A stretch of 64,000 nucleotides of DNA. Origin: Thermodesulfobacteriota bacterium. GTDB taxonomy: Bacteria > Desulfobacterota_D > UBA1144 > Nemesobacterales > Mycalebacteriaceae. The position numbers were made by a program, and so were the translations under genes. Position 1 is the first letter of the stretch; each line of letters starts with the position of its first letter. The notes beneath the pieces were generated by a model. That model was not told the origin of the DNA. It was given only the letters and a program-made list of their open reading frames with translations, and ran no database searches. The stretch lies in NCBI GenBank assembly GCA_965205855.1, contig OZ242184.1, forward strand, positions 334,853 through 398,852. The letters run 5' to 3'. Positions 1-42,171 of this stretch are shown piece by piece.

Positions 1-28
1 GCGCGGGCGTTTCAACAAGGTAATCACA

Positions 29-2140
29 ATGAGCGGTTCTTCTAAAAAACTCAGAAAAGAGCTTGGCGTAAAAGACATTTTCGCACTCGGAGTTGGCACC
101 TCCCTGAGCGCGGGGCTTTTTCTTCTTCCCGGTATTGCCGCGAAGGAATTCGGGCTTGGCTCATCGGTCGTCATAGCTTATATGGTGGCCGTTTTTGCCC
201 TTGTTCCAGTCATATTCAGTATAGCCGAGCTTTCAACCGCCATGCCCAGAGCGGGAGGCGTCTATTATTTCATAGACCGCTCTCTGGGGCCTCTTTTCGG
301 CACCGTGGGGGGAATTGGCAGCTGGCTGGCCCTTGTTCTCAAATCCGCTTTCGCGCTTATCGGTATGGGTTACTACCTGTTGCATTTTTTCCCGGATTAT
401 AGTAATTATGTTGTTCCGTTCTCAATCTTCTCCTGCTTTGTCATAGGAATGGTTAACGCCGTCGGGGCAAAGGGAAGCGGCGATTTCCAGAAGCTACTTG
501 TTACCATTCTCATTTTGACGCTCACGGTTTTCATTGCCGTGGGCATTCCGGAAATTGATTCGGCGAACCTGTCAACATTTTTTGAATTTTCGCCCGAAGC
601 GATGCTTGCCACTTCCGCGATGGTCTATATCAGTTACGCGGGGATAACAAAGGTTACTAGTCTCTCGGAGGAGGTTAAAGACCCCGAGCGCACCATTCCG
701 CTTGGGATGTTTTATGCGCTTGGCGTATCCGTTTTAATTTACGGGCTTGGCATTCTTGTAATGGTCGGTGTCATTCCCGGAAAGGAAGTGCTCGGGGACT
801 ATACCCTTGCTGCGGACGCCGCGGGAGCGGTTCTCGGCAAGACGGGACTTCACATCATATCCTTTGCGGCCATTGCCGCGTTTATCTCGGTCGCAAACGC
901 TGGAACGCTTACCGCATCGCGCTACCCTCTGGCAATGAGCCGGGACGATGTTATGCCACGCGTTTTTATGAAAATTTCACAAAACGGCACGCCCGTCTAT
1001 GCCCTTGCGCTGACGGTGCTTGCGGTCACGGTTGTGCTTGTTCTTCTTGACCCTATCAGGATTGTAAAACTTGCAAGTGCTTTTCAGCTTTTTGTGTTTG
1101 CGATTGTGTGTTTTTCCGTGATTGTGATGAGAGAAAGTAGAATTGAGTCATACGACCCGGGATACAAATCTCCTTTTTATCCCTGGATGCAGTTTGCCGG
1201 CATTCTTTTCTCTCTCTGGTTGTTTTTCAGTTTCGGTTTTATGGCAAAGTTTTTCACCGCAGTTGTCGTAGCCGTGTGCGTGATATGGTATCGGTTTTAT
1301 GTCCGAGGCGGTGCCGAGAGAGGCGGAGCGATATTTCATCTGTTTGAAAAACTCGGGCGTTCAAGATACGACGGTCTGGACACCGAACTAAGGGGAATAC
1401 TCAAAGAAAAGGGCTTGCGCAAAGAAGACCCGTTTGACCGCCTTATGGTGGGAAGCGGAGTGATTGATTTGAAAGACCGTGACGGGCTTGATTTTGAGAT
1501 GGTCGCCCATCTTGTGGCGGAGAAACTGTGTCAACGCATAAGGCATTTCTCTCCCGCGGAAATTGCGCGGCTTTTTATAGAAAACACCGGAGTTGGCATG
1601 ACACCTGTTACCGGAGACGGCGTAGCTCTTCCGCATTTGAGGCTTGCCGGGCTTGACAATATGGAGATTGTGATGGTTCGCTCGCGCCGCGGGGTCGGTA
1701 TCCGTGCAAGTGGCGAAGAACCCATGCAGTCCGCATCCTCGGCGAAAGCGCTGTTTTTTCTCGTAAGTCCCAAGGACGACCCCAACCTGCATCTCAGAAT
1801 ACTCGCCAGAATGGCAAGCATAGTTGAAGATGAAAGCTTTCACAGAGATTGGATGAGAGCTCCCGGAGAGGATGAACTCAGGGAAATATTCACGCGCAGT
1901 GAGCAGATAATCACTTTTGAAATCGGCCCCTGGGACAGTCCGTCCCATGCTCTTGTCGGCAAGCCGTTGAGGAATTCCAAATTGCCTCAGGGCTGTCTTG
2001 TGGCCCTTGTCAAGAAAGCCGGGCACGCTGTTGTTCCCGGTCCGATGACCGTTTTGGAGCAGGGGGATTCCGTAACTTTTGTCGGAGAGCCCGAAGCGAT
2101 TGAAGAGGTTAAAAGAAGATATCTGTGGACGGGGAACTGA
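29..2140 (+). CDS. APC-family amino acid permease fused to C-terminal PTS EIIA(Ntr)-type and TrkA-C regulatory domains
   Basis: The N-terminal 430 aa are multi-TM with APC permease-like motifs. The C-terminus has a GVALPHLRL motif typical of PTS_EIIA_2 (phosphorylatable His) and a VTFVGEPEAIEEV TrkA-C-like tail. Confidence 0.65.
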   Translation: MSGSSKKLRKELGVKDIFALGVGTSLSAGLFLLPGIAAKEFGLGSSVVIAYMVAVFALVPVIFSIAELSTAMPRAGGVYYFIDRSLGPLFGTVGGIGSWLALVLKSAFALIGMGYYLLHFFPDYSNYVVPFSIFSCFVIGMVNAVGAKGSGDFQKLLVTILILTLTVFIAVGIPEIDSANLSTFFEFSPEAMLATSAMVYISYAGITKVTSLSEEVKDPERTIPLGMFYALGVSVLIYGLGILVMVGVIPGKEVLGDYTLAADAAGAVLGKTGLHIISFAAIAAFISVANAGTLTASRYPLAMSRDDVMPRVFMKISQNGTPVYALALTVLAVTVVLVLLDPIRIVKLASAFQLFVFAIVCFSVIVMRESRIESYDPGYKSPFYPWMQFAGILFSLWLFFSFGFMAKFFTAVVVAVCVIWYRFYVRGGAERGGAIFHLFEKLGRSRYDGLDTELRGILKEKGLRKEDPFDRLMVGSGVIDLKDRDGLDFEMVAHLVAEKLCQRIRHFSPAEIARLFIENTGVGMTPVTGDGVALPHLRLAGLDNMEIVMVRSRRGVGIRASGEEPMQSASSAKALFFLVSPKDDPNLHLRILARMASIVEDESFHRDWMRAPGEDELREIFTRSEQIITFEIGPWDSPSHALVGKPLRNSKLPQGCLVALVKKAGHAVVPGPMTVLEQGDSVTFVGEPEAIEEVKRRYLWTGN

Positions 2141-2796
2141 GACAGTTGAAATACAAAGCCGTAATTTTTGACCTTGACGGGACGCTTGTTGACTCGGTTG
2201 CAGACATAGCCAATGCCGCCAATGCGTCTTTACAACGCAACGGGTTTCCCCACCGGGATGTTGACGAATACAGGCTTTTCATAGGCGAGGGCGCTGAGGG
2301 AATGATAAAAAAAGCTCTTCCCCAAAATGCCTCCAGGGCGGACATAGGCAGATGTCTTGAGGGTTTTATGCTGTCCTACAGAGAGGGTTTTGATGTTCTC
2401 ACAAAACCTTACGATGGCATAGAGAAGTTGCTTGGCGCTCTTTGCGGCGGCGGCGTAACGATTGCCGTGCTTTCCAACAAGCCGCAGGAGATGACTTCAA
2501 AGATTGTCCGCAGTCTTCTTTCGGACTGGCCGTTTGCCGAGATTGTCGGACACAGCGGTGAGACTCCGCGAAAGCCCGACCCCGCCGGAGCTCTGGGACT
2601 CTGTTCAAGGATTTCGATTGGCCCGGAGCAAACCGCGTTTGTGGGGGATTCTGCCATAGACATGAAAACTGCGGTTGCCGCCGGGATGCTTCCCGTTGGG
2701 GTACTTTGGGGATTTCGCAGCAGAGACGAGCTTGTCGGCGCCGGAGCGCGTTATGTTATGGAGCATCCAGCCGACCTTACGGATATTATAGGATAG
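2125..2796 (+). CDS. HAD-superfamily phosphatase (phosphoglycolate phosphatase-like)
   Basis: VIFDLDGTLVDS motif I, a SNKP motif and a GDS..D motif IV. Overlaps the upstream ORF by 16 nt. Confidence 0.7.
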   Translation: MDGELRQLKYKAVIFDLDGTLVDSVADIANAANASLQRNGFPHRDVDEYRLFIGEGAEGMIKKALPQNASRADIGRCLEGFMLSYREGFDVLTKPYDGIEKLLGALCGGGVTIAVLSNKPQEMTSKIVRSLLSDWPFAEIVGHSGETPRKPDPAGALGLCSRISIGPEQTAFVGDSAIDMKTAVAAGMLPVGVLWGFRSRDELVGAGARYVMEHPADLTDIIG

Positions 2797-2806
2797 GATT
2801 CAAACT

Positions 2807-3970
2807 GTGAGCGGATTTTGCGCAAAAGGCATAAAAACACGGCTTGGAATTCTCGGTGGCGGCCAGCTTGGCAAGATGCTGTGCCTTGCCGCAGCCGAAT
2901 GGAATTTGCCGACAATGATTCTTGACCCTTCGGGCGACTGTCCGGCGTCTTCGGTCTGCTCGGATTTTACAAAGGGGGATTTCAAAAATGCCTCCGATGT
3001 GATGAATTTCGGACACGGCGCGGACATGTTGACCATAGAGATAGAGCATGTGAACACGGACGCGCTCAAGACTCTTGAGCGCGATGGAACGATGACAAAT
3101 CCCTCGCCTGAAGTTATTTCGCTTATACAGGACAAGGGGCTTCAGAAACAGTTTTACTCGGAGCGGGGGATTCCCTCGCCGGATTTCTCCCTTTTTGACA
3201 CTCCGCGTGAGATTGCGGATGCGGTTGCGGGCGGCGCGCTCAAACTTCCTTTTGTGCAGAAACTTCGCACAAGCGGCTATGACGGGCGGGGTGTATCGGT
3301 TGTCCGTTCGGAGTCTGACCTCGGGCGGCTTCTTGACGGCCCTTCGGTTGTTGAAACCTTTGTTGACATAGAAAGAGAACTGTCGGTTATCGTGGCGCGC
3401 AACGGGAGCGGGCAGACCGCATGTTTTCCGCCTGTTGAGTTGATATTCAACAGCGAGGCAAACCTTGTGGAGTATCTTGTTTGTCCCGTGGAGAATGTTG
3501 ACCCCGTGGCACTTACGGAGGCGGAGAAAATTGCGCTTGAGATTGCGGATTCTCTGTCGCTGCGGGGAATAATAGCGGTTGAGATTTTTCTTTCCACAGA
3601 CGGGCGGGTTATGGTTAACGAGGCCGCTCCGCGTCCGCACAACAGCGGACATCACACAATAGAGGCGTGCGTGACATCGCAATACGAGCAGTGCCTTCGC
3701 GCCGTGCTGGATTTGCCGCTTGGCGGCACGGCTCTTAAAACTCCGTCTGTTATGGTTAACATTCTGGGCAAGCCGGGGTATGAGGGGGAAGCGATATACA
3801 GCGGATTGGATGAGTGCATGAGGGTGAGCGGGGCGAGCTTTCACATCTACGGAAAGACGCGCACAAAACCATTCAGAAAGATGGGGCATGTTACGGTTAC
3901 CGACAGGGATATAAAAAATGCTTTGACAAAGGCGCGGTTCATAAAACAAAATCTTAGGGTGGTGTCATGA
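2807..3970 (+). CDS. purK: N5-carboxyaminoimidazole ribonucleotide synthase (ATP-grasp)
   Basis: ILGGGQLGKM N-terminus, ATP-grasp motifs, followed by purE with a 4-nt overlap. Confidence 0.85.
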   Translation: MSGFCAKGIKTRLGILGGGQLGKMLCLAAAEWNLPTMILDPSGDCPASSVCSDFTKGDFKNASDVMNFGHGADMLTIEIEHVNTDALKTLERDGTMTNPSPEVISLIQDKGLQKQFYSERGIPSPDFSLFDTPREIADAVAGGALKLPFVQKLRTSGYDGRGVSVVRSESDLGRLLDGPSVVETFVDIERELSVIVARNGSGQTACFPPVELIFNSEANLVEYLVCPVENVDPVALTEAEKIALEIADSLSLRGIIAVEIFLSTDGRVMVNEAAPRPHNSGHHTIEACVTSQYEQCLRAVLDLPLGGTALKTPSVMVNILGKPGYEGEAIYSGLDECMRVSGASFHIYGKTRTKPFRKMGHVTVTDRDIKNALTKARFIKQNLRVVS

Positions 3971-4488
3971 GCAAACCGGTTGTAAGCGTTGTTATGGGTT
4001 CTGATTCGGACCTTGGGGTTATGAAAAAGGCGGCGGCCTTTCTTGAGGGTTTGGGAGTTCCCGTTGAGGTTACAATCGTGAGCGCTCACAGAACCCCGCA
4101 GCGGCTTTTTGATTTTGCGCAAAACGCGCACACGCGCGGGATAGATGTAATCATTGCCGGCGCGGGAGGCGCGGCGCATCTGCCCGGAATGATAGCGTCT
4201 ATTTCCCCGCTTCCGGTTATCGGCGTGCCGATTAACTCTTCAAACTCCATTGACGGTGTGGATTCGGTTCTTTCAATTCTCCAGATGCCCGCTGGTGTTC
4301 CGGTTGCGACTGTTGCCGTTGACGGCGGCGAGAATGCGGGAATTCTCGCGGCGGAGATTCTTGCGGTGAAAGCCCCCGCGCTTCGGGATAAAATTGTTGA
4401 GTTTAAAAAGGGACTTGCGGACGGCGTGAGGAAGAAGTTTGAACGGCTTGAGAAAGAGGGTTATGTGGAGTATTTGAAAGGGAAATGA
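3967..4488 (+). CDS. purE: N5-CAIR mutase
   Basis: VVMGSDSDLGVMKKAA and GAGGAAHLPGM motifs. Confidence 0.9.
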   Translation: MSKPVVSVVMGSDSDLGVMKKAAAFLEGLGVPVEVTIVSAHRTPQRLFDFAQNAHTRGIDVIIAGAGGAAHLPGMIASISPLPVIGVPINSSNSIDGVDSVLSILQMPAGVPVATVAVDGGENAGILAAEILAVKAPALRDKIVEFKKGLADGVRKKFERLEKEGYVEYLKGK

Positions 4489-5087
4489 CTTGGAAAGAGT
4501 TTGTTTATGATTTAGTAGTTCAACACTGCGAAAGGAGTGGTGAGAGAGCTTTTACCCTTCAAGAGCTTCAGAAGCAAAACAAAGACGAAATTTCCGGTTT
4601 CAGAGATAAGGCAAAAACTCCGAACGCGACAGTAAGAAGAGTCCTTCAAGAATTAAGGGACGTTGACCTTATAGCGTTTAAAAGCAAAGGGGAATATTGT
4701 TTACGAGGACAGGATTTGCCAATTCTGCAAGCCGGAGCGGAAGATGAGAGCCTTATTGAGATAATTAAAAAATCTCCCGTGGAAAAGAGAGAATATTTTT
4801 TTGAGGTATTTGTCAGAGACGCCTCTTGGAAAACAAAAGCCACAAAGGTTTTCGGTTTTGACTGTTTACTACCAAAATGCGTTAATTCATTCATCAAAGA
4901 GGACGGAACGCCTTATATTGAGGTTCATCACATTAAGTCTCTTTGCGAAGGCGGAGAGAATAATATTGGGAATTTATCTGTTGTGTGCGCGCACCATCAC
5001 AGGATGGCGCATTATGCGGATGTCCGCACACGGGAAGATATTCAAAACATATTGATTGAGAAAAACGGAAGTATCATTTCCGATTGA
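4485..5087 (+). CDS. HNH endonuclease with N-terminal winged-helix-like domain (McrA-like or restriction-associated)
   Basis: C-terminal HH..(N)..CxxHH motif (VHHIKSLCEGGENNIGNLSVVCAHHHRMAH). Low GC compared with its neighbours. The start ATG overlaps the purE stop (ATGA). Confidence 0.65.
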   Translation: MTWKEFVYDLVVQHCERSGERAFTLQELQKQNKDEISGFRDKAKTPNATVRRVLQELRDVDLIAFKSKGEYCLRGQDLPILQAGAEDESLIEIIKKSPVEKREYFFEVFVRDASWKTKATKVFGFDCLLPKCVNSFIKEDGTPYIEVHHIKSLCEGGENNIGNLSVVCAHHHRMAHYADVRTREDIQNILIEKNGSIISD

Positions 5088-5089
5088 AG

Positions 5090-5275
5090 TTACTGAAAAT
5101 TGTCAATAATTGTGGAAAGGTCTTTGATGCAATATCTTTCAATGACTTTTCCGTCCAGCCAAATCCATAGTTCCTCTCCGTCAAAATCCAGTTCGTCATA
5201 CGGTTCGTTGGTTGTTTTGAAATAGCGATAGATTGAATTCCATTGTTTTGAGATTGTGTCGTTAGTCTTGTGCAT
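5090..5275 (-). CDS. small hypothetical protein (61 aa) at the 3' end of the restriction-modification operon
   Basis: ORF only. Low-GC and same-strand, 1 nt downstream of the methyltransferase gene. Confidence 0.3.
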   Translation of the reverse strand: MHKTNDTISKQWNSIYRYFKTTNEPYDELDFDGEELWIWLDGKVIERYCIKDLSTIIDNFQ

Positions 5276-5276
5276 T

Positions 5277-6164
5277 TTAAGCCCGCCGTAAAGTTTTTCT
5301 TCTTTTTGCAGGGGTTTCTAAAAGTCTTGGCTGATTCTGCAAAGCCTCTTTTTCCATGTCGGGATATTTTTTGTCTCTGATAAATTTCTGTTTGTATTTT
5401 ATATCTATAAAGCCATTTTTCTCTATGCGTTCCAGTATCATTTTATGGTACTTCTTGTTTGTCTCACAGGACAGAAAGTTTCTCTTGAGGTTTTTTGTGA
5501 GGATTATTTCGGAACCGCTTCCGCCAAAAAGAATAAACACATTATCCTTTTCCACAGTGCAGGATTTGATAAGCATTTCAACAAGAGGCAGTGGAATCTG
5601 GCAGGAATGAAAGGTTTTGTCTTTTGAAACATTTTTTACTAAGTCAAAGTAAAACCATGAATAGGGCATTCTGCCTTTGTGTCCTTCTGCAATTCTTTGT
5701 TTTATCCTTCTGTCTTCGGGGTTTTGATATGGAACCGCCACTTGGTCTTTGTAGAAGTTATTGTCCTTCGTTTTTGTCGCGTGAAGTATTGAGCGGTGTG
5801 CTGTGGTAAAACGCTTTTTTGAATGCCCAACGTTTGTATTGTAAACCCAAGCGTAATCGTGAACTTCATAAGCTGCTTCATCAAGAAAATTAACCCGAAG
5901 ATATGAGTTTTGTTTTGGATAGTTAAGCAGAAAAAGATTTCCTTCTGGTTTTAAAACTCGCAAGCTTTCTTTTGCGAGCTCCGAATACCAGGCAATATAA
6001 GATTGCCAAGCCTTTCTGTGTTTTTCTCCTCCAGCGTAAACTATGCCGACATTGTAGTCAGGGTCTCCATAGACCATATCAAGACAGTTGTCTGGGAGTT
6101 TTTTTAAGACTTTTAGAACATCCTCATTGACAACGGAGTTTCTGTATTTGTTCGGCAATCTCAT
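5277..6164 (-). CDS. beta-class DNA methyltransferase (N6-adenine or N4-cytosine)
   Basis: Motif IV DPDY (DPPY-like) near the N-terminus, followed by motif I FGGSGS. This order is typical of beta-class amino-MTases. There is a HxxQxPxxL pre-motif. Confidence 0.8.
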   Translation of the reverse strand: MRLPNKYRNSVVNEDVLKVLKKLPDNCLDMVYGDPDYNVGIVYAGGEKHRKAWQSYIAWYSELAKESLRVLKPEGNLFLLNYPKQNSYLRVNFLDEAAYEVHDYAWVYNTNVGHSKKRFTTAHRSILHATKTKDNNFYKDQVAVPYQNPEDRRIKQRIAEGHKGRMPYSWFYFDLVKNVSKDKTFHSCQIPLPLVEMLIKSCTVEKDNVFILFGGSGSEIILTKNLKRNFLSCETNKKYHKMILERIEKNGFIDIKYKQKFIRDKKYPDMEKEALQNQPRLLETPAKRRKTLRRA

Positions 6165-6955
6165 TTATTTACCAATTTGTACTCTGCGGCTTTTAAAAGT
6201 TGTATTGAAGTCATGTCGCCTGGTTTTTTAAATGAGTAAAGATAAAGTCTCAAAACAGATTCGTTTTCAACATTGTCTCTTAACAGATAGCAACAGTTTA
6301 TTTGTTTCATCTCAAGACCTTCTTCTTTTTTTAGGTCTGAAAAATAAACAAAAGGAATATAGATTTGATAAACAGCAAAATCACCCAAAAAACCGTTTTT
6401 ACCTTCAACGACAGTTACTACTCCGTTGTGTTCAAAAGTCTGGTCTATTTCCATTTGTAAGTTTGTGGTCTTTATTTTTTGCTTGCCTACATTATAGGAG
6501 ATAGTTTTCTTGGTTCTTCTTGATTGATACACTTTCGCTTCTATATTCTCATTTCCGTAAAGGAAGTGATGAGTTATTCTCTGGTTGAATGCTACAGATA
6601 GAATGTTACTTTCGCTTGTATCATACTCATTGAGCAAACTTTTTCTGTATGTCCAGTTTTGGATATTCTTTTCGGGAATCGTTTCAAATTTGTGATAGCC
6701 ATTTTTGATGCCTTTCACAAATTGGTGCTTACCTTCGCCCAAATGTAAGATGAAGAAATCTTTTGCTTTCAGAAGTTCGGGAAGTTTTTCGGTTGAGTCA
6801 ATTTTTGTTACATCAAACGGGTTTCCAAACCCAACTTCTTTTGAAATTTCCTTTACGAGGTCATTGTGGAAAACAAAGTGTTTCTTCTGTAGACAATGTT
6901 GCAAAAGCTTCGTTTGCAACTGTTTTTTCTTACCTTCTATTTTTTCTTTAGTCAA
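6161..6955 (-). CDS. putative type II restriction endonuclease (PD-(D/E)xK candidate)
   Basis: Immediately upstream of the MTase on the same strand with a 4-nt overlap. Candidate catalytic motif EID...(15 aa)...VEGK. AT-rich codon usage. Confidence 0.45.
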   Translation of the reverse strand: MTKEKIEGKKKQLQTKLLQHCLQKKHFVFHNDLVKEISKEVGFGNPFDVTKIDSTEKLPELLKAKDFFILHLGEGKHQFVKGIKNGYHKFETIPEKNIQNWTYRKSLLNEYDTSESNILSVAFNQRITHHFLYGNENIEAKVYQSRRTKKTISYNVGKQKIKTTNLQMEIDQTFEHNGVVTVVEGKNGFLGDFAVYQIYIPFVYFSDLKKEEGLEMKQINCCYLLRDNVENESVLRLYLYSFKKPGDMTSIQLLKAAEYKLVNK

Positions 6956-7030
6956 AGATGTATCTCTCTGGCGTGTTCTTCAATATTAGAAGACCCGTTG
7001 ACTCAAATAATGTCTTATTCTACCTTACCC

Positions 7031-7495
7031 TCACAACCGTGCGTCAAACTCAAACGGCAGTTTTTTTACCTTCTTAACCACCTGTTCAAAACCCGTATGC
7101 TGCGGGTTCAGTATATAAATCCATTCTCCTGACACAACCGCGCTTGGCACGGCAAGGGCGAGGGTTTTCTTTTTCCAGAGCCAAAAGTCGCCGATTATTG
7201 CGGTTTCTTGCGGCGACGGGTTGGCTCGCCAGTTACTTGGCAGTTGTTTTTGTTTCAAATACAACACATCTTTTTCCGGTATTTGCAATTCAAACAAACA
7301 GTATCTGTCCATTTTGATATTCCTTCTCTGATGCACAAACACTTCAAGAATCGCCAGAGACTCCGAACCGGCTGTATAGACGCACGTTGTTCCTATGCTG
7401 CTCCACCTTCCGCCAAATTCTTCAGTTCCTTCACCGCTGAACGCAACGGTTGAATACTCGTCTTTGACAAGCCGGTAAATGTTGAAAACTTTCAA
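7031..7495 (-). CDS. RES-domain toxin (ParT/MbcT-like NAD-targeting toxin)
   Basis: GGRWSSIGTTCVYTAGSESLAILEVFVH matches the RES-domain signature (R...E...S). About 150 aa, 4-nt overlap with the upstream antitoxin. Confidence 0.8.
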   Translation of the reverse strand: MKVFNIYRLVKDEYSTVAFSGEGTEEFGGRWSSIGTTCVYTAGSESLAILEVFVHQRRNIKMDRYCLFELQIPEKDVLYLKQKQLPSNWRANPSPQETAIIGDFWLWKKKTLALAVPSAVVSGEWIYILNPQHTGFEQVVKKVKKLPFEFDARL

Positions 7496-7851
7496 ACAAA
7501 AATCCCGTGCTCAAGACACCCTATCAAATTCAGAATCTGGTCGCTCTCAACCGATGTTCCGAGCAAATCAACGGGCTTTTTGTATCCGAGACCGCGAACG
7601 GGATGAGTTAGCCAATCCATTGCCGCCTCTTTGTCGCCCGCGAAAAGCCCCGTTGCCGCTTCCAGAACTTTGACAAACCTGTATAGACGGTCGCTCTCGT
7701 TTTTGTTGAACCTTCCAGCCTTTGCCCGCCGCTGAAGTGTGGCGGGAGAAATTAACGTTATTCTCGCAAGCTCTTTTTTATCAAGCCCGGAAATGGCGGA
7801 GAGTTTGTTGTAAATCTGATAGGAAAACCCTTCATTCAACGCCTCATGCAA
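7492..7851 (-). CDS. Xre-like antitoxin with DUF2384 domain (ParS/MbcA-like)
   Basis: About 120 aa with HTH-like TLISPATLQRR and a C-terminal DUF2384-like region (DWLTHPVRGLGYKKPVDLL), the canonical partner of RES toxins. Confidence 0.75.
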   Translation of the reverse strand: MHEALNEGFSYQIYNKLSAISGLDKKELARITLISPATLQRRAKAGRFNKNESDRLYRFVKVLEAATGLFAGDKEAAMDWLTHPVRGLGYKKPVDLLGTSVESDQILNLIGCLEHGIFV

Positions 7852-7933
7852 CTTTGCCCCTTGCCGGGGAACTCCGGTTGCATACCATATATCTTTGTTT
7901 TTCTCTTCTGCCGCTATCTTGCGTATCCTTCAC

Positions 7934-7956
7934 TTGATATATTAGCATTATATCAA
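7934..7956 (-). promoter_or_regulatory. perfect 8-bp inverted repeat TTGATATA-N7-TATATCAA overlapping the -10 (TATAAT) of a minus-strand promoter (-35 TTGTCT at 7969-7974); likely autoregulatory operator of the RES-Xre operon
   Basis: Read directly from the sequence. Spacer 16 nt, extended -10 TGnTATAAT. Located about 90 nt upstream of the antitoxin start and overlapping the ctaB stop codon. Confidence 0.55.
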
Positions 7957-8892
7957 ATGATACAACGAAGACAAGCTCGCGACTTCAATCAATTCCATAA
8001 TTTTTTTGATTTCTCTGTCTCTTGTCGCTATATCCACAATCAGCGCGGTCATTATCATCAGCATATAGATGATTGACGCCCCAAACGCAGTTTCATATCC
8101 TCTGCCCCTGACCGCGCACCTTATAACCATGAAGTTGAAGTAGATGCCAAGGGCAAGCGCGGCGGCGGCAAAGTAGGCGGTCGCCATTCCGGTAAGAAAC
8201 ATTGTAAGGGTCAGTGGAATAAGTGAGATTGAATAGAGAACAATCAGAATGTTTGTGTATTTTTCACCGAACGCCACAGGAAGAACGTCAATTCCGGCTT
8301 TTTCATATTCATGGCTGTATTTCTGCGCAAGTGCCCAGAAGTGCGGCGGTTGCCACAACATCATAAAAATAAAAAGCAGAAGCGCGTCCGCGCCGATTTC
8401 GGGACTGATTGCCGTGTACCCGATAAGCACCGGAAGCGCGCCCGGGATTCCGCCGAGAATGGTTCCGAACGGGGAGTTTCTTTTGAGAAACATCGTGTAG
8501 AGAACCGTGTAACTCGCCGCGGCAAGGGTGATTAACAAAGCGTTGGGAAGATTTATCCAGATTGCGGAGACAACTGTCGCGCCTCCCATGAGAATGAATG
8601 ACAAAACAGCCGCGTTTTTCTCTCCAAGAAGCTCAAGCGCGTTCACTCTCGCGCAAAGTCTGTCCATAAGTTTGTCGGATTTTCTGTCCAGAAAGTTGTT
8701 GAAGATTGCCGAACCGGCCGCCGCAACCATAAGGGTAATGCAACCAAGCAAGGCGGTTTTTATTTCGGGGATACCACCGCCGGAAAGAACCATCCCGGCA
8801 AACCCGGTGAATACGACGCTGAGGATAATTCCCGGTTTTGAGAGGACAACCGCTGAAACCACAATTTCCCGAACGGGTTTTTTGCCGTCCAT
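7948..8892 (-). CDS. ctaB: protoheme IX farnesyltransferase (heme O synthase, UbiA family)
   Basis: UbiA-type multi-TM protein with NxxxDxxxD-like motifs. Start chosen at MDGKKP to abut the ctaA stop; the longer ORF would overlap ctaA by 95 nt. Confidence 0.8.
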   Translation of the reverse strand: MDGKKPVREIVVSAVVLSKPGIILSVVFTGFAGMVLSGGGIPEIKTALLGCITLMVAAAGSAIFNNFLDRKSDKLMDRLCARVNALELLGEKNAAVLSFILMGGATVVSAIWINLPNALLITLAAASYTVLYTMFLKRNSPFGTILGGIPGALPVLIGYTAISPEIGADALLLFIFMMLWQPPHFWALAQKYSHEYEKAGIDVLPVAFGEKYTNILIVLYSISLIPLTLTMFLTGMATAYFAAAALALGIYFNFMVIRCAVRGRGYETAFGASIIYMLMIMTALIVDIATRDREIKKIMELIEVASLSSLYHLI

Positions 8893-8893
8893 A

Positions 8894-9745
8894 CTAACCA
8901 ACCGGATTTTCGCCGCTTTCAAACCATTTGAAAAGACTGAACGAAAGAATATGCAGCGCAACAAGCAGATGGAGCGCGGTCGCGGCAAACTGAAGCCCCG
9001 AATGAATCATACCGACACCGATGACGACTTGAAGAAACACCGAGCCGAGAATCACATATGCGGCTTTTCGCATTTTGCTCCCGGCGTATGTGTGGGAGAA
9101 AACCGCCATACCGATTGCGAATAACGCTATGAGATATCCGAGGGCTCTGTGGAAGAAGTGATAAAGCACCACGCCGGAAAGGTCGGGCGGAATCCACACT
9201 CCGAGGCATTTGGGGAAGTCAGCTCCACAGGCAAGCCCCGCGTCCGAGTGGCGCACAAACGCGCCGGCAACCGCCTGAAAAAGAACAAGCGCGGCGAAGG
9301 CAAACCACATTCCGTAAATTCCCGATGTTGAAAGCCCGTTTCGGGGACTGGTCTCAAAACGGCTCATGTAAACCGTTATGCAGAAGATAAGAGCCGCGTT
9401 GGCGAAATGGACGGTTGTCAGGTCGGTCGGCAGTTTGAGCAAAACCACCGAGCCACCGAGCCCAATCTGGACAACAAGCAGAAAAATCGCGAGAGCCGGA
9501 AGCAGTTTCGCGGCTCCCGTGTATGACCTTATACGCCTTGCGGAAAGCCAGATTATAACAACCGCCGTGAATGCCCCGATAATGCGGTGGAGAAACTCGG
9601 CGTAGATATCCCAGCGCAAAGGCGGGAGAATCTTGCCGTGACAGAGAGGCCAGTCCGGACAGGCGAGACCCACCTTTAGCCCCGCGACGATGTTTCCCCA
9701 GACCAGAAGAATGACAAGGGATATTAAAGCCAGTCTGGAAAGCAT
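8894..9745 (-). CDS. ctaA: heme A synthase (COX15/CtaA family)
   Basis: Multi-TM protein with conserved His pairs, sitting between the cox operon and ctaB. Confidence 0.7.
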   Translation of the reverse strand: MLSRLALISLVILLVWGNIVAGLKVGLACPDWPLCHGKILPPLRWDIYAEFLHRIIGAFTAVVIIWLSARRIRSYTGAAKLLPALAIFLLVVQIGLGGSVVLLKLPTDLTTVHFANAALIFCITVYMSRFETSPRNGLSTSGIYGMWFAFAALVLFQAVAGAFVRHSDAGLACGADFPKCLGVWIPPDLSGVVLYHFFHRALGYLIALFAIGMAVFSHTYAGSKMRKAAYVILGSVFLQVVIGVGMIHSGLQFAATALHLLVALHILSFSLFKWFESGENPVG

Positions 9746-10062
9746 CAGTTCACCGCCGGAATACGACTGAAGTTTTCCATCAGAGTTGTTCCTATGAGCA
9801 ACAGAAGCAGGAAGATCGGATATATCGCGTATACCCAGGTGAGTTTGTCCTCAAATTTCAAATGCATAAAATAAAGCGCCACTATGCCTGCCTTTACCGA
9901 GGCAATCAACATGGCGATTATGATGTTTAGTTGACCGCCCAAATCAATGCTTGCGGTCCACAGGGTGAGTGCCGTAAGCGCCATTAGTGCGCCCCAGACA
10001 ACAAAATACTGCAATGTTCCGTGCGAGTGTTCTTCGGGGTTTGTATTGTTTTGCGACGACAT
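9745..10062 (-). CDS. cytochrome c oxidase subunit IV (prokaryotic caa3-type)
   Basis: A 105-aa two- to three-TM protein directly downstream of subunit III. Confidence 0.55.
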   Translation of the reverse strand: MSSQNNTNPEEHSHGTLQYFVVWGALMALTALTLWTASIDLGGQLNIIIAMLIASVKAGIVALYFMHLKFEDKLTWVYAIYPIFLLLLLIGTTLMENFSRIPAVN

Positions 10063-39615: not shown

Positions 39616-42171
39616 ATGCAGGACTATTCGCGATTTCTCAGCCGTTGTTCAAGTTGGGAGCAGTTTTCGGATTACACAGGCTCCCTGAAAACCGCGAAAG
39701 AGAAGGGCGACCTTTTTGAAAAACTGGTTTGGACATATCTGACAGTCCATCCCGAATACAGGACAAAGCTTTCCAATGTTTGGTTGCTCCGCGATGTTCC
39801 GCAGGCGGTTACCCGCAAGCTCAATCTTCCGTCTGCCGACGAGGGTATAGACCTGATTGCGCAAGCTCGCGGCGGCGGGTTCTGGGCGATACAGGCAAAA
39901 TACAGGTCTGACAAAGACAAAGCGCTGAACACCCGCGACCTTGCGAAGTTTTTGCACCTTTCTTTTACCCATTGTAACGGCATAACCCACGGCGTTATTG
40001 CGCACACGACTTCAAAGCCCGTACGGAAAAAAAATTTGCTTGGTAATGTGGTTGAAATCGGTCTTTCGCGCTGGCAGGAACTCTCGCCCGAAGGGTGGGA
40101 CGCAATCCGCGCGAAGGTGGCGAACAAGGTTCACAATCTCGTGCCGCGCAAACCGAGGAGACATCAGAAGGCGGCAATCGCCAACATACGCAAGCATTAC
40201 GCGGAAGAAAAAAAGCCGAGGGGCAGGATGATTATGCCTTGCGCGTCCGGAAAAAGTCTCACGGCGTTCTGGGCAGCGCAAGCCCTTAAAGCGAAGACGG
40301 TTGTTCTTGCCGTGCCGAGTCTTTTGCTCGTAAAGCAAAGCGTCAAAGACTGGACTCGCGAGTATCTCGCCCATAATGAGACACCGGACTGGCTTTGTGT
40401 TTGCAGCGATGAGACTGTTGGCAAGATAGAGGACAGTTTTGTTTCAAACATATACGAAACGGGGCTTCCGACCACAACGGACGCAAAAGAGATAGCAGAC
40501 TTTCTGAGAAAACGCTCATCTGTGCCGAGGGTGATTTTTACAACCTACCAAAGCAGTCCCCGGCTTGCGGAGGCGGCGCGCAAGTCCGGGCGCGAGATAG
40601 ACCTCTGCATACTGGACGAAGCGCACAAGACAGTCGGGGAAAAAGATTCCGCTTTTGCGACCTTGCTTGACAACAGGAAACTGAAAATCAAAAGGCGGCT
40701 TTTTATGACTGCCACAGAAAGGGTTCTTCACGGAAAAAACGATGAAGTTCTGTCAATGGATGACGAGCGGACTTACGGCGGGTGTTTTTATCAACTCACA
40801 TTCAGGCAAGCGATTGAGGACGGCATTATATGCGATTATAAGATTCTGACTCTTACGATTTTGGACGCGCAGGTACGCGAGATTGTTGAGAGAAACAGAC
40901 TTGTGAAAGACAGATTGCTTGCTCAGCAGACCCGTGAGTCCGCGCCGCTTGCCGCGGGAATTGCGCTCGGCAAGGTGTTCAACGAACACTGCATTAAACA
41001 CGCGGTTTCATTTCACAAAAGCATAAAATCCGCTACCGATTTCAAATCCCAGCAGGAAGACCTTTCAAAGTCTCGCGTTATCAAAACAAAGATTGAGAAC
41101 TTTCATATTTCAAGCAATCTGTCCGCCGGAGAGCGAACGGTTGTGATGCGCGATTTTGAGCAATCCCAAAGGTCTCTTATAACAAACGCCAGATGTTTGA
41201 CCGAAGGGGTTGATGTTCCCGCGATTGATTGTGTTCTTTTTGCAGATCCCAAGCACAGCGTTATTGACATTGTTCAAGCGGCGGGAAGGGCGATGCGTCC
41301 GAAAGAGGGAAAAGAGAGGGGCTACATACTCCTGCCGATTGTTGTGCCGGACGGGATGAGTGTTGAGGAATTTGCGGAAACAACCCCGTTCAAAAAGGTT
41401 GCAAGTCAGATTACCGCGCTGTCCACTCAGGACGAGAGAGTCAAGGAAGAGTTCAGGGCGATTACCGAAGGGAAAAGGCCAAGCGCGCAAGGGCGGCTTT
41501 TTTCAATCAGCGGCGATGTTCCCGCCGGAATGAATATCAGTCTCAAACAGTTTTCCGATGCGATTGAAAGCAAAATTTGGGAAAAGGTTGCCAAAGTTAA
41601 TTGGAGGGTTTTTAAAGAAGCGCGGGATTATGCGCAGTCGTTGAGACTAAAAAGTGCAACGGAATGGCGCGAACACACAAAGTCATCCGATTTTCCGTCA
41701 GATATTCCTGTTGATCCCAACCGAACATACAAAGACAAAGGATGGGTTAATTGGGGAGATTGGCTTGGGACTGGAAATATAGCTAATTTTCTCAAAGAGT
41801 ACCGTTCTTTTAAAGAAGCGCGGGATTATGCGCAGTCGTTGCAACTAAGAAGTAGAACGGAATGGCGCGAACACACAAAGTCATCCGATTTTCCGTCAGG
41901 TATTCCTGTTGATCCCTACCGAACATACAAAGACAAAGGATGGGTTAATTGGGGAGATTGGCTTGGGACTGGAAATATAGCTAATTTTCTCAAAGAGTAC
42001 CGTTCTTTTAAAGAAGCGCGGGATTATGCGCAGTCGTTGAGACTAAAAAGTGCAACGGAATGGCGCGAACACACAAAGTCATCCGATTCTCCGTCAGATA
42101 TTCCTGTTGCTCCCGACCAAATATACAAAGACAAAGGATGGGTTAATTGGGGAGATTGGCTTGGAAAATAA
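39616..42171 (+). CDS. Mrr-like restriction-endonuclease-fold / SF2 DEAH helicase fusion protein with three C-terminal tandem repeats
   Basis: Mrr_cat-like N-terminus (FEKLVWTYL...DEGIDLIA...QAKY). Walker A CASGKS, DEAH (ILDEAH), motif III TAT and motif VI QAAGRAMR. Three 66-aa repeats FKEARDYAQSL...KDKGWVNWGDWLG at the C-terminus. The start is 4 nt after the gyrB stop. Confidence 0.7.
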   Translation: MQDYSRFLSRCSSWEQFSDYTGSLKTAKEKGDLFEKLVWTYLTVHPEYRTKLSNVWLLRDVPQAVTRKLNLPSADEGIDLIAQARGGGFWAIQAKYRSDKDKALNTRDLAKFLHLSFTHCNGITHGVIAHTTSKPVRKKNLLGNVVEIGLSRWQELSPEGWDAIRAKVANKVHNLVPRKPRRHQKAAIANIRKHYAEEKKPRGRMIMPCASGKSLTAFWAAQALKAKTVVLAVPSLLLVKQSVKDWTREYLAHNETPDWLCVCSDETVGKIEDSFVSNIYETGLPTTTDAKEIADFLRKRSSVPRVIFTTYQSSPRLAEAARKSGREIDLCILDEAHKTVGEKDSAFATLLDNRKLKIKRRLFMTATERVLHGKNDEVLSMDDERTYGGCFYQLTFRQAIEDGIICDYKILTLTILDAQVREIVERNRLVKDRLLAQQTRESAPLAAGIALGKVFNEHCIKHAVSFHKSIKSATDFKSQQEDLSKSRVIKTKIENFHISSNLSAGERTVVMRDFEQSQRSLITNARCLTEGVDVPAIDCVLFADPKHSVIDIVQAAGRAMRPKEGKERGYILLPIVVPDGMSVEEFAETTPFKKVASQITALSTQDERVKEEFRAITEGKRPSAQGRLFSISGDVPAGMNISLKQFSDAIESKIWEKVAKVNWRVFKEARDYAQSLRLKSATEWREHTKSSDFPSDIPVDPNRTYKDKGWVNWGDWLGTGNIANFLKEYRSFKEARDYAQSLQLRSRTEWREHTKSSDFPSGIPVDPYRTYKDKGWVNWGDWLGTGNIANFLKEYRSFKEARDYAQSLRLKSATEWREHTKSSDSPSDIPVAPDQIYKDKGWVNWGDWLGK
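41611..42171 (+). repeat. three tandem 198-bp direct repeats (last copy truncated) at about 96% nucleotide identity, inside the CDS
   Basis: Copies start at 41611, 41809 and 42007. Only about 7 mismatches between copies 1 and 2. Confidence 0.9.

Follow-up and report, generated by a model that had tools for sequence, protein, structure and literature searches.

At the end of its purK-purE operon, the window, by which we mean the whole 64-kb stretch of DNA that was analysed, carries a small gene for a winged-helix (wH) HNH nuclease, which faces a minus-strand R-M operon containing a DNA methyltransferase (MTase), its probable restriction enzyme (REase) and a short conserved ORF (Table 1). The purE frame ends in GGG AAA TGA, with the stop at 4486-4488, and the ATG of the HNH gene occupies positions 4485-4487, so that ATGA is common to both genes; the junction sequence confirms in this respect the overlap reported in the initial annotation. 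This ATG is the earliest start codon in the HNH frame and, because the approximately 120 homologues found open with the same residues (MTWKEF..., with a nearly invariant W3), we take the start at 4485 to be correct. Downstream, the HNH gene and the 61-aa ORF lie tail-to-tail, with their stop codons 2 bp apart, and the intact MTase gene is found 190 bp from the HNH gene. The 61-aa ORF gave no match in Pfam, NCBIfam or PADLOC, and no homologue among the 80 R-M loci described below. The GC content of the HNH gene (0.405) is, as had been noted before, like that of the island and unlike that of purE (0.534), the R-M genes being at 0.34-0.38 (61-aa ORF, 0.371; MTase, 0.384; DUF6996/6997 REase gene, 0.336) and the window as a whole at 0.491. 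The RES/Xre toxin-antitoxin genes have a GC content of 0.46-0.49, and this pair is a neighbour, probably not belonging to the same unit. Direct or inverted repeats in the flanks, as possible marks of the island ends, were looked for with no convincing result.

Table 1. Genes of the locus and domains of the wH-HNH protein, with their positions in the window.
Feature	Position	Strand	Basis or remark
purE (AIR carboxylase)	3967..4488	+	Pfam AIRC, E 2e-61; stop overlaps the HNH start
wH-HNH nuclease gene (200 aa)	4485..5087	+	ORF; Pfam HNH and DpnI_C; PADLOC; family profile; AF2/Foldseek
DpnI-type winged helix, N-terminal (aa 1-75)	4485..4709	+	family profile to DpnI; Foldseek
Recognition helix (aa 46-59)	4620..4661	+	alignment to DpnI
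McrA-type helical and HNH (beta-beta-alpha-Me) domain (aa 88-200)	4746..5084	+	EcoKMcrA 6ghc match; invariant columns
61-aa conserved ORF, function unassigned	5090..5275	-	last gene of the minus-strand R-M operon
Beta-class N6_N4 DNA methyltransferase	5277..6164	-	Pfam, E 1e-28; PADLOC MTase_II, E 4.5e-112; motif IV is DPDY
DUF6996/DUF6997 protein, probable type II REase of the MTase	6161..6955	-	Pfam; PADLOC REase_II, E 1.4e-13
RES toxin	7031..7495	-	NCBIfam Res_ParT_toxin, E 4e-48
Xre antitoxin	7492..7851	-	NCBIfam Xre_ParS_antitoxin, E 5e-31

A scan for sigma-70-like promoters and terminators around the HNH gene showed no excess over shuffled sequence. Because of the ATGA overlap, the lack of an intergenic gap and the common strand, read-through from purKE with translational coupling would be the simplest reading of its expression; taken by itself, the ATGA overlap shows no more than the possibility of such coupling. 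In the opposite direction, transcripts of the R-M operon, whose end on the minus strand is 2 bp away from the HNH stop, may also run convergently across the 3' end of the HNH gene.

The closest homologue is found in Dadabacteria (loci L001/L002), where an HNH gene whose product is 63% identical also lies downstream of purK-purE. The Dadabacteria purE ends with the same GGGAAATGA as the window purE; there, the ATG of the ATGA opens a 56-aa ORF, which is followed by a ClpP-like SDH protease and then by the HNH gene with its own ATGACTTGG start. After the HNH gene come a convergent 77-aa ORF, which is the homologue of the window 61-aa ORF at the same place (E 1e-21), and the same MTase. The layout of the window can be derived by a putative ATGA-to-ATGA deletion, or that of its relative by a putative insertion. 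In the comparison with L001, identity and dN/dS amount to 82% and 0.114 for purE, 64% and 0.204 for purK, 63% and 0.205 for the HNH gene, 64% and 0.157 for the small ORF, and 83% and 0.065 for the MTase, the HNH values thus being similar to those of purK, and dS is 1.0-2.0 for all five genes (1.4 for HNH). These dS values, together with the low dN/dS throughout, indicate that the low-GC block is old, has been co-inherited with its flanks and is under purifying selection; it is neither a recent arrival nor a remnant. The HNH gene itself is a real gene, as attested by its approximately 120 homologues, its invariant catalytic residues and its dN/dS of 0.205 against the Dadabacteria orthologue.

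The homologues, of about 196-200 aa, form a small family (about 41 clusters at 50% identity with E<=1e-30, among 1.84 billion representatives), and its 80 genome loci are scattered across many phyla and groups, including Zixibacteria, Planctomycetota, Ignavibacteria, Methylococcales, Nitrospirota, Armatimonadota and Vampirovibrionales. Among 2.9 million viral contigs (IMG/VR) there were only 2 weak, HNH-only matches, and among 72,556 plasmids (PLSDB) there was no full-length match. The neighbours in the HNH loci are mostly housekeeping genes and the gene is usually alone at the tail of a housekeeping operon, the closest relatives being found after cydAB (L006 and L008) or amid unrelated genes; in 31 of 64 loci, an upstream ORF of the same direction stops at a distance of less than 60 nt from the HNH gene, a count that, like the other neighbour counts, is approximate because the ORF caller is crude. 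Most homologues have no MTase within 2-3 genes. The family is mostly solitary; in the window there is an intact MTase nearby, which is paired with its own REase. None of these taxa or accessions is listed in the supplements of Helbrecht 2024.

The encoded protein combines a DpnI-type winged helix with a McrA-type nuclease domain. From the single sequence, Pfam detects HNH at aa 136-176 (E 9e-6) and the wH of DpnI_C ('Dam-replacing HTH', PF17726) at aa 12-71, the latter with 22.0 bits for a cutoff of 23, and PF17726 is present in many homologues; the best PADLOC model is mREase_IV (type IV methyl-directed restriction enzyme, E 4e-9). A PDB search, also with the single sequence, aligned the C-terminal half with residues 188-276 of EcoKMcrA (6ghc, E 5e-7), and with ScoMcrA as well. 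The kinship with McrA suspected in the initial annotation is borne out by a family profile built from 38 aligned members, which matches the EcoKMcrA HNH (6ghc) at E 9e-12; the same profile matches the wH of DpnI (4esj, residues 197-254) at E 8e-9. The AF2 model (mean pLDDT 88.1) consists of a wH at aa 3-73 (H-E-H-H-H-E-E), a linker of lower confidence at aa 74-87, and then three helices and a beta-beta-alpha HNH core. In Foldseek searches against the PDB, ScoMcrA, EcoKMcrA and TagI, all of them type IV enzymes, rank first, and the N-terminal domain matches the DpnI wH (4esj/4kyw) with an rmsd of 1.7-2.9 A over 52-63 residues. The catalytic residues H148, H149, N163, H172 and H176 are invariant in the 38 aligned homologues, as are the zinc ligands C127, C132, C168 and H171, and they align with the zinc and catalytic residues of McrA; judged from this alignment, the catalytic and zinc site of the nuclease looks intact. 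The proposal that a winged-helix N terminus joined to an HNH domain represents a McrA-like layout stands, then, as far as the fusion and its nuclease half are concerned, and has to be revised for the N-terminal part: aa 1-95 gave no match to McrA residues 1-186, the N-terminal 5mC/5hmC reader, and matched instead the C-terminal wH of DpnI. As the reader is of the DpnI type, the mark to be expected on the target DNA would be N6-methyladenine, and not the 5-methylcytosine of McrA.

Within the recognition helix, aa 48-55 ATVRRVLQ (A48-T49-V50-R51-R52-V53-L54-Q55) align with EKIRQQLQ of DpnI (E228-K229-I230-R231-Q232-Q233-L234-Q235). DpnI forms its pockets for the two methyl groups of Gm6ATC with E228, K229, R231, Q232 and Q235 (PMC3424567); two of these five residues are kept in the window protein (R231 as R51 and Q235 as Q55), and the other three are changed (E228 to A48, K229 to T49 and Q232 to R52). 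The 120 homologues comprise 67 with KxRQxxQ, 33 with TxRRxxQ, which is the type of the window, and 1 with SxRR, the split between KxRQ and TxRR being clean, as both residue changes travel together. It has been described that the full DpnI GATC/6mA motif is present in only about 10% of wH fusions, and hence marks a GATC subset and not the architecture (Helbrecht 2024, PMC11037411). In the case of VchI, a wH-HNH protein of V. cholerae, the positions of DpnI K229 and Q232 are taken by V42 and R45; this protein binds G6mAG, not G6mATC, and its binding is abolished by V42K or R45A (bioRxiv 10.1101/2025.05.22.655678). Because T49 and R52 replace DpnI K229 and Q232, which are changed in VchI too, GATC should not be assumed as the target of the window protein: by analogy, that of the TxRR type may differ from Gm6ATC.

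The wH-HNH architecture is already in the literature, and the window protein is a further bacterial member with a variant reader helix. The published fusions SruGXI and HpaD253I, and the PUA-wH-HNH proteins HhiV4I/HHPV4I (PMC11037411; PMC10101028), present the same order, with the wH followed by a McrA-kind HNH, and are, going by their description, encoded by stand-alone genes and proposed to be N6-methyladenine-dependent type IV enzymes, as the window protein would be. However, the tested fusions come from haloarchaea or viruses and measure 224-496 aa, whereas the window clade is bacterial and of about 200 aa, and the window protein does not have the full DpnI GATC/6mA motif used for the GATC subset of wH-HNH proteins (T49/R52 for K/Q). 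VchI, again likened by its published description, is bacterial like the window protein, with the DpnI-like wH on its N-terminal and the HNH on its C-terminal side; both proteins have Arg at the position of DpnI Q232 (R45 of VchI, R52 of the window protein) and a residue other than lysine at that of K229, which is Val in VchI (V42) and Thr in the window protein (T49). R.DpnI itself (type IIM, Gm6ATC) has a homologous wH, whose recognition helix aligns residue by residue, but carries it on the C-terminal side of a PD-(D/E)XK nuclease, which cleaves within GATC, whereas the wH of the window protein is N-terminal to an HNH. As for EcoKMcrA, ScoMcrA and TagI, their C-terminal helical and zinc-stabilised HNH region is homologous to that of the window protein, and modification-dependent restriction is likewise the role that we propose for the latter; the N-terminal 5mC/5hmC reader of McrA and the SBD/SRA readers of ScoMcrA are, in contrast, absent from it, their place being taken by the DpnI-type wH.

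In 12 loci (L012, L014, L017, L019, L026, L032, L034, L058, L060, L062, L065 and L083), a truncated gene for a beta-class, DpnA/LlaDCHIB-like adenine MTase stands immediately before the HNH gene and on its strand. These truncated MTases are 50-58% identical to LlaDCHIB of plasmid pSRQ700, whose DpnII-type cassette consists of a Dam-like MTase, a DpnA-like MTase and a REase; a CcrM-like identity, which PDB matches had pointed to, was ruled out by this similarity. The fragments end at LlaDCHIB residues ranging from about 67 to 237 of 269, with at least some 9 distinct truncation points, and the loci include both reader types (KxRQ and TxRR). In L013, the 3' part of a DpnA-like MTase gene lies downstream of the HNH gene. 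Altogether, the adjacent DpnA-like MTase is truncated in 13 of 14 cases, with the HNH gene intact. The fragments found downstream of the HNH gene in L062, L083 and L026 were considered as remnants of a DpnII-type REase and rejected as such, given their weak and generic PD-(D/E)XK match. LlaDCHI/DpnII cassettes are GATC-specific. Since intact HNH genes abut truncated DpnA-like MTase genes, the arrangement suggests a family in conflict with (GATC) adenine methylation: an intact nuclease beside a dead adenine MTase is what would be expected of a methylation-dependent enzyme, whereas a classical REase could not survive the same. Pneumococcal DpnI/DpnII cassettes alternate, and the truncated-MTase pattern echoes this alternation. 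It also recalls the frameshifts reported by Helbrecht in adjacent 6mA/4mC MTases (PMC11037411). One locus is a counter-example: in L042, genes for a DpnA-like MTase and a DpnII-like REase, both of full length, are directly followed by an intact HNH gene of the KxRQ type, which conflicts with the simple picture, because a Gm6ATC-cutting HNH protein beside an apparently intact DpnA-like MTase should be lethal.

Of all 4-mers, GATC shows the strongest depletion in the window (41 observed vs 198 expected, z about -16), with zero occurrences in positions 1-9813, and in the gammaproteobacterial locus L081 it is observed 1 time vs 36 expected. When k-mer depletion was pooled over 82 sources (the 80 R-M loci, L081 and the window), GATC had the largest z-score, but the HNH loci used as controls are depleted too, the pooled observed-to-expected ratio being 0.40 in R-M loci and 0.60 in the control loci, with a wide spread between loci. 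The depletion fits lineages with past GATC-directed restriction, and pins the target of neither system.

All together, we consider the product of the gene to be, probably, a type IV-like restriction nuclease of the wH-HNH kind that stands alone and depends on DNA modification. The idea of a type IV element guarding the island thus survives in part: the HNH domain is of the McrA type and the family, being mostly solitary, has the behaviour expected of modification-dependent nucleases, although the 5mC-type reader of McrA is absent. It has been argued that nucleases standing alone, with no MTase, have to depend on modification, as they would otherwise kill their host, and wH-HNH fusions are toxic in Dam+ E. 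coli and not in Dam- (PMC11037411). Concerning the methylation dependence, cleavage activity and target of the window protein, we infer the following scheme. The gene, which has no recognisable promoter of its own, would be expressed as a continuation of the purK-purE operon via the ATGA stop/start overlap. The DpnI-type wH would enter the major groove with its recognition helix (aa 46-59) and bind DNA with N6-methyladenine in a short motif, and the tethered McrA-type HNH (with H149 as the general base, N163, the H172/H176 metal site and the CCCH zinc) would nick or cut nearby, probably outside the motif and with a Mn2+/Co2+-type preference, as in McrA and HhiV4I. Host DNA without the mark would be spared, and invader DNA coming from mark-making hosts would be cut. 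The adjacent R-M pair is self-sufficient, and the HNH protein would have to tolerate its methylation.

Two alternatives concern the relation of the protein to this R-M pair. The initial annotation had raised the option that the protein is the REase, or a nicking partner, of the adjacent MTase; it would then be the subunit that restricts or nicks DNA in a type II system, with the MTase giving protection. Both the closeness to an intact MTase and the co-inheritance of the HNH gene, the small ORF and the MTase in two Dadabacteria lineages agree with this option. However, the MTase has an upstream partner of its own, the DUF6996/6997 gene, which overlaps the start of the MTase gene and for whose product there are more than 700 homologues, none of them named. 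In 71 of 80 metagenome loci fetched via the DUF6996/6997 protein, the MTase comes directly after the DUF6996/6997 gene. Nearly all of the remaining loci are interrupted by a contig end; in L096, there is enough space but no MTase match. The wH-HNH family was found in none of these 80 loci and, conversely, only L081 and the Dadabacteria loci carry the R-M pair among about 85 HNH loci, about 95% of which are without it. Because the MTase has its own conserved partner in 71 of the 80 loci, none of them with HNH, the HNH protein is most probably not the REase of the adjacent MTase; the R-M pair (DUF6996/6997 nuclease and DPDY MTase) is a separate system, independent of HNH. If we add that most members of the family have no MTase within 2-3 genes, and that the truncation of 13 of the 14 adjacent DpnA-like MTases beside an intact HNH gene would be lethal for a classical REase, the type II subunit appears very improbable and is largely refuted by the comparative data. 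A deliberate two-layer unit, in which unmodified DNA would be cut by R-M, and DNA that escapes it through a rival adenine methylation by the wH-HNH protein, seems to us distinctly unlikely. It draws on the GATC depletion of the window and L081, and on the finding that the R-M pair adjoins a DpnI_C-wH nuclease in three independent settings, namely the window with the Dadabacteria L001/L002, of the TxRR type (HNH 63% and MTase 83% identity), L081, with a KxRQ-type HNH and the order HNH-R-M, and L097, with a PLD-wH fusion nuclease (DpnI_C, E 5e-26). Against this, among the 52 R-M loci flanked by 1 kb or more, only 1 has a wH-nuclease neighbour and 51 have none, most HNH loci are devoid of the pair, as stated, the pooled k-mer depletion singles out no one R-M site (0.40 vs 0.60 in the control), and defence genes cluster in islands anyway. 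We read the proximity of the R-M pair and the wH nuclease as defence-island clustering with possible complementarity, and not as a single system.

The other two alternatives question that the protein acts in restriction. A selfish element or homing HNH gene, or else a remnant decaying as a passenger of the island, would account for the sporadic distribution, the low GC and the insertion at the very end of a same-direction upstream gene (approximately, 31 of 64 loci), but it is hard to credit for a gene that is essentially absent from viral contigs and plasmids, lacks any intron or intein context, has housekeeping genes as neighbours, is under purifying selection with an age common to the flanking purK and purE, and encodes a dedicated reader domain for DNA modification. 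In this regard, a homing-endonuclease remnant devoid of a DNA-binding domain was discarded, as the DpnI-type wH is present. We also regard as unlikely, in spite of its precedents, a non-cutting binder of methyl-adenine DNA, serving as an epigenetic reader or regulator or being toxic by tight binding, as proposed for VchI. Indeed, VchI, the sole bacterial wH-HNH protein tested in vitro, bound methylated (G6mAG) DNA and showed no cleavage under any tested condition (bioRxiv 10.1101/2025.05.22.655678), most of the haloarchaeal wH-HNH proteins in Table 1 of Helbrecht are toxic in vivo and inactive in vitro (PMC11037411), and the change of Q232 to R is common to VchI and the window protein. Nevertheless, the invariance of H148/H149, N163, H172, H176 and the CCCH zinc site, together with a dN/dS of 0.2, is hard to explain for a dead nuclease, and inactivity in vitro may reflect the assay conditions, for example if two sites or a particular metal were needed.

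With a stand-alone, modification-dependent nuclease as the preferred reading, a joint and clearly speculative interpretation, which we consider possible though rather doubtful, would bring several of these observations together. The T49/R52 helix would denote a bacterial wH-HNH clade that reads 6mA outside Gm6ATC, much as V42/R45 of VchI do for G6mAG; in Dadabacteria, this nuclease would have been long co-inherited with an uncharacterised R-M pair as a two-layer defence, and the family would spread by displacing DpnII-type GATC R-M cassettes, leaving truncated dpnA behind. If true, this would be, on a wide scale, a counterpart of the swapping of DpnI and DpnII cassettes in pneumococci.

For the annotation of the window, our results imply that the type IV-like nuclease and the type II-like R-M pair be treated as two defence units, and not as one. 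For the family, the siting at the tail of operons and the repeated truncated DpnA-like neighbours are new, genome-only supporting evidence for a conflict with GATC methylation. To our knowledge, few adenine-methylation-dependent nucleases are known, and almost all of them read Gm6ATC. A compact wH-HNH protein of 200 aa, with T/R in place of K/Q, could give a new reader of a 6mA motif for epigenetic tools, and its T49/R52 helix could help to map how two residues retune a DpnI-type winged helix.

The DUF6996/DUF6997 protein and the beta-class methyltransferase (MTase) encoded beside the HNH nuclease (see table) look like an uncharacterised type II restriction-modification (R-M) family. The R-then-M pair is widespread and tightly conserved (71/80 loci), with more than 700 homologues at about 55-60% identity, all of them without a name, and motif IV of the window MTase has the unusual form DPDY. 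The same type of pair is also found next to other winged-helix nucleases. In one locus (L097, 4563-5483), a PLD-winged-helix fusion nuclease (PLDc_2 + DpnI_C, E 5e-26) directly follows it, and in another (L081, 5289-7764) it is preceded by a winged-helix HNH protein of the KxRQ type, the window protein belonging to the other reader-helix class, TxRR.

Features of the window in and around the low-GC block, and further defence genes
Feature	Position	Strand	Context
DUF6996/DUF6997 protein + beta-class MTase	5277-6955	-	R-then-M order
61-aa acidic ORF	5090-5275	-	after MTase; tail-to-tail with HNH, stops 2 bp apart
RES toxin/Xre antitoxin pair (type II TA)	7031-7851	-	adjoins low-GC block
851-aa protein, Mrr_cat_2 restriction-endonuclease domain fused to ResIII/DEAD helicase	39616-42168	+	directly after gyrB

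The small acidic ORF between the MTase and HNH genes may encode a regulator, or else an inhibitor. Family searches gave no match for it, and no counterpart was found in 80 other R-M loci; the Dadabacteria keep one, of 77 aa, with 64% identity and a dN/dS of 0.157. In one Dadabacteria locus (L001, 1424-2585), two genes separate purE from HNH, a 56-aa ORF that begins at the ATGA of purE and one for a serine protease of the ClpP-like SDH type; the window has neither.

Among the other defence genes, the one for the 851-aa protein may provide a second restriction enzyme, dependent either on modification or on ATP. A Pfam scan found no MTase domain in its ORF, and the PADLOC matches to REase_MTase_IIG (E 6e-101) and REase_MTase_I, recorded for the window as a whole, may or may not stem from it. 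The GC content of the RES/Xre pair is close to the genome average.

Across the window (1-64000), the rarest 4-mer relative to expectation is GATC (41 observed, 198 expected), which first occurs at 9814; other 4-bp palindromes are also scarce, TCGA, GTAC, ACGT and GGCC being among those at 0.3-0.4 of expectation.

A Chthonomonadaceae MAG (L042, 8053-10603) carries a DpnA-like MTase, a DpnII-like REase and a KxRQ-type winged-helix HNH gene in one row, all intact, a combination that should be self-destructive if its HNH cuts Gm6ATC. Dead MTase genes also adjoin this nuclease family. One of them, an 84-aa ORF just 3' of HNH in L015 (10731-10985), retains only the C-terminal part of an adenine MTase of the MT-A70 family, matching positions 124-172 of the 172 in the model, and a DpnA/LlaDCHIB-like remnant lies in the HNH locus L013 (11841-12287). 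Truncated DpnA/LlaDCHIB-like MTase genes stand immediately upstream of HNH in L012, L014, L017, L019, L026, L032, L034, L058, L060, L062, L065 and L083. Their position, together with cut points that are many and differ, suggests that the HNH gene has on repeated occasions taken the place of DpnII-type cassettes or put them out of action, and that it is expressed from their promoter.
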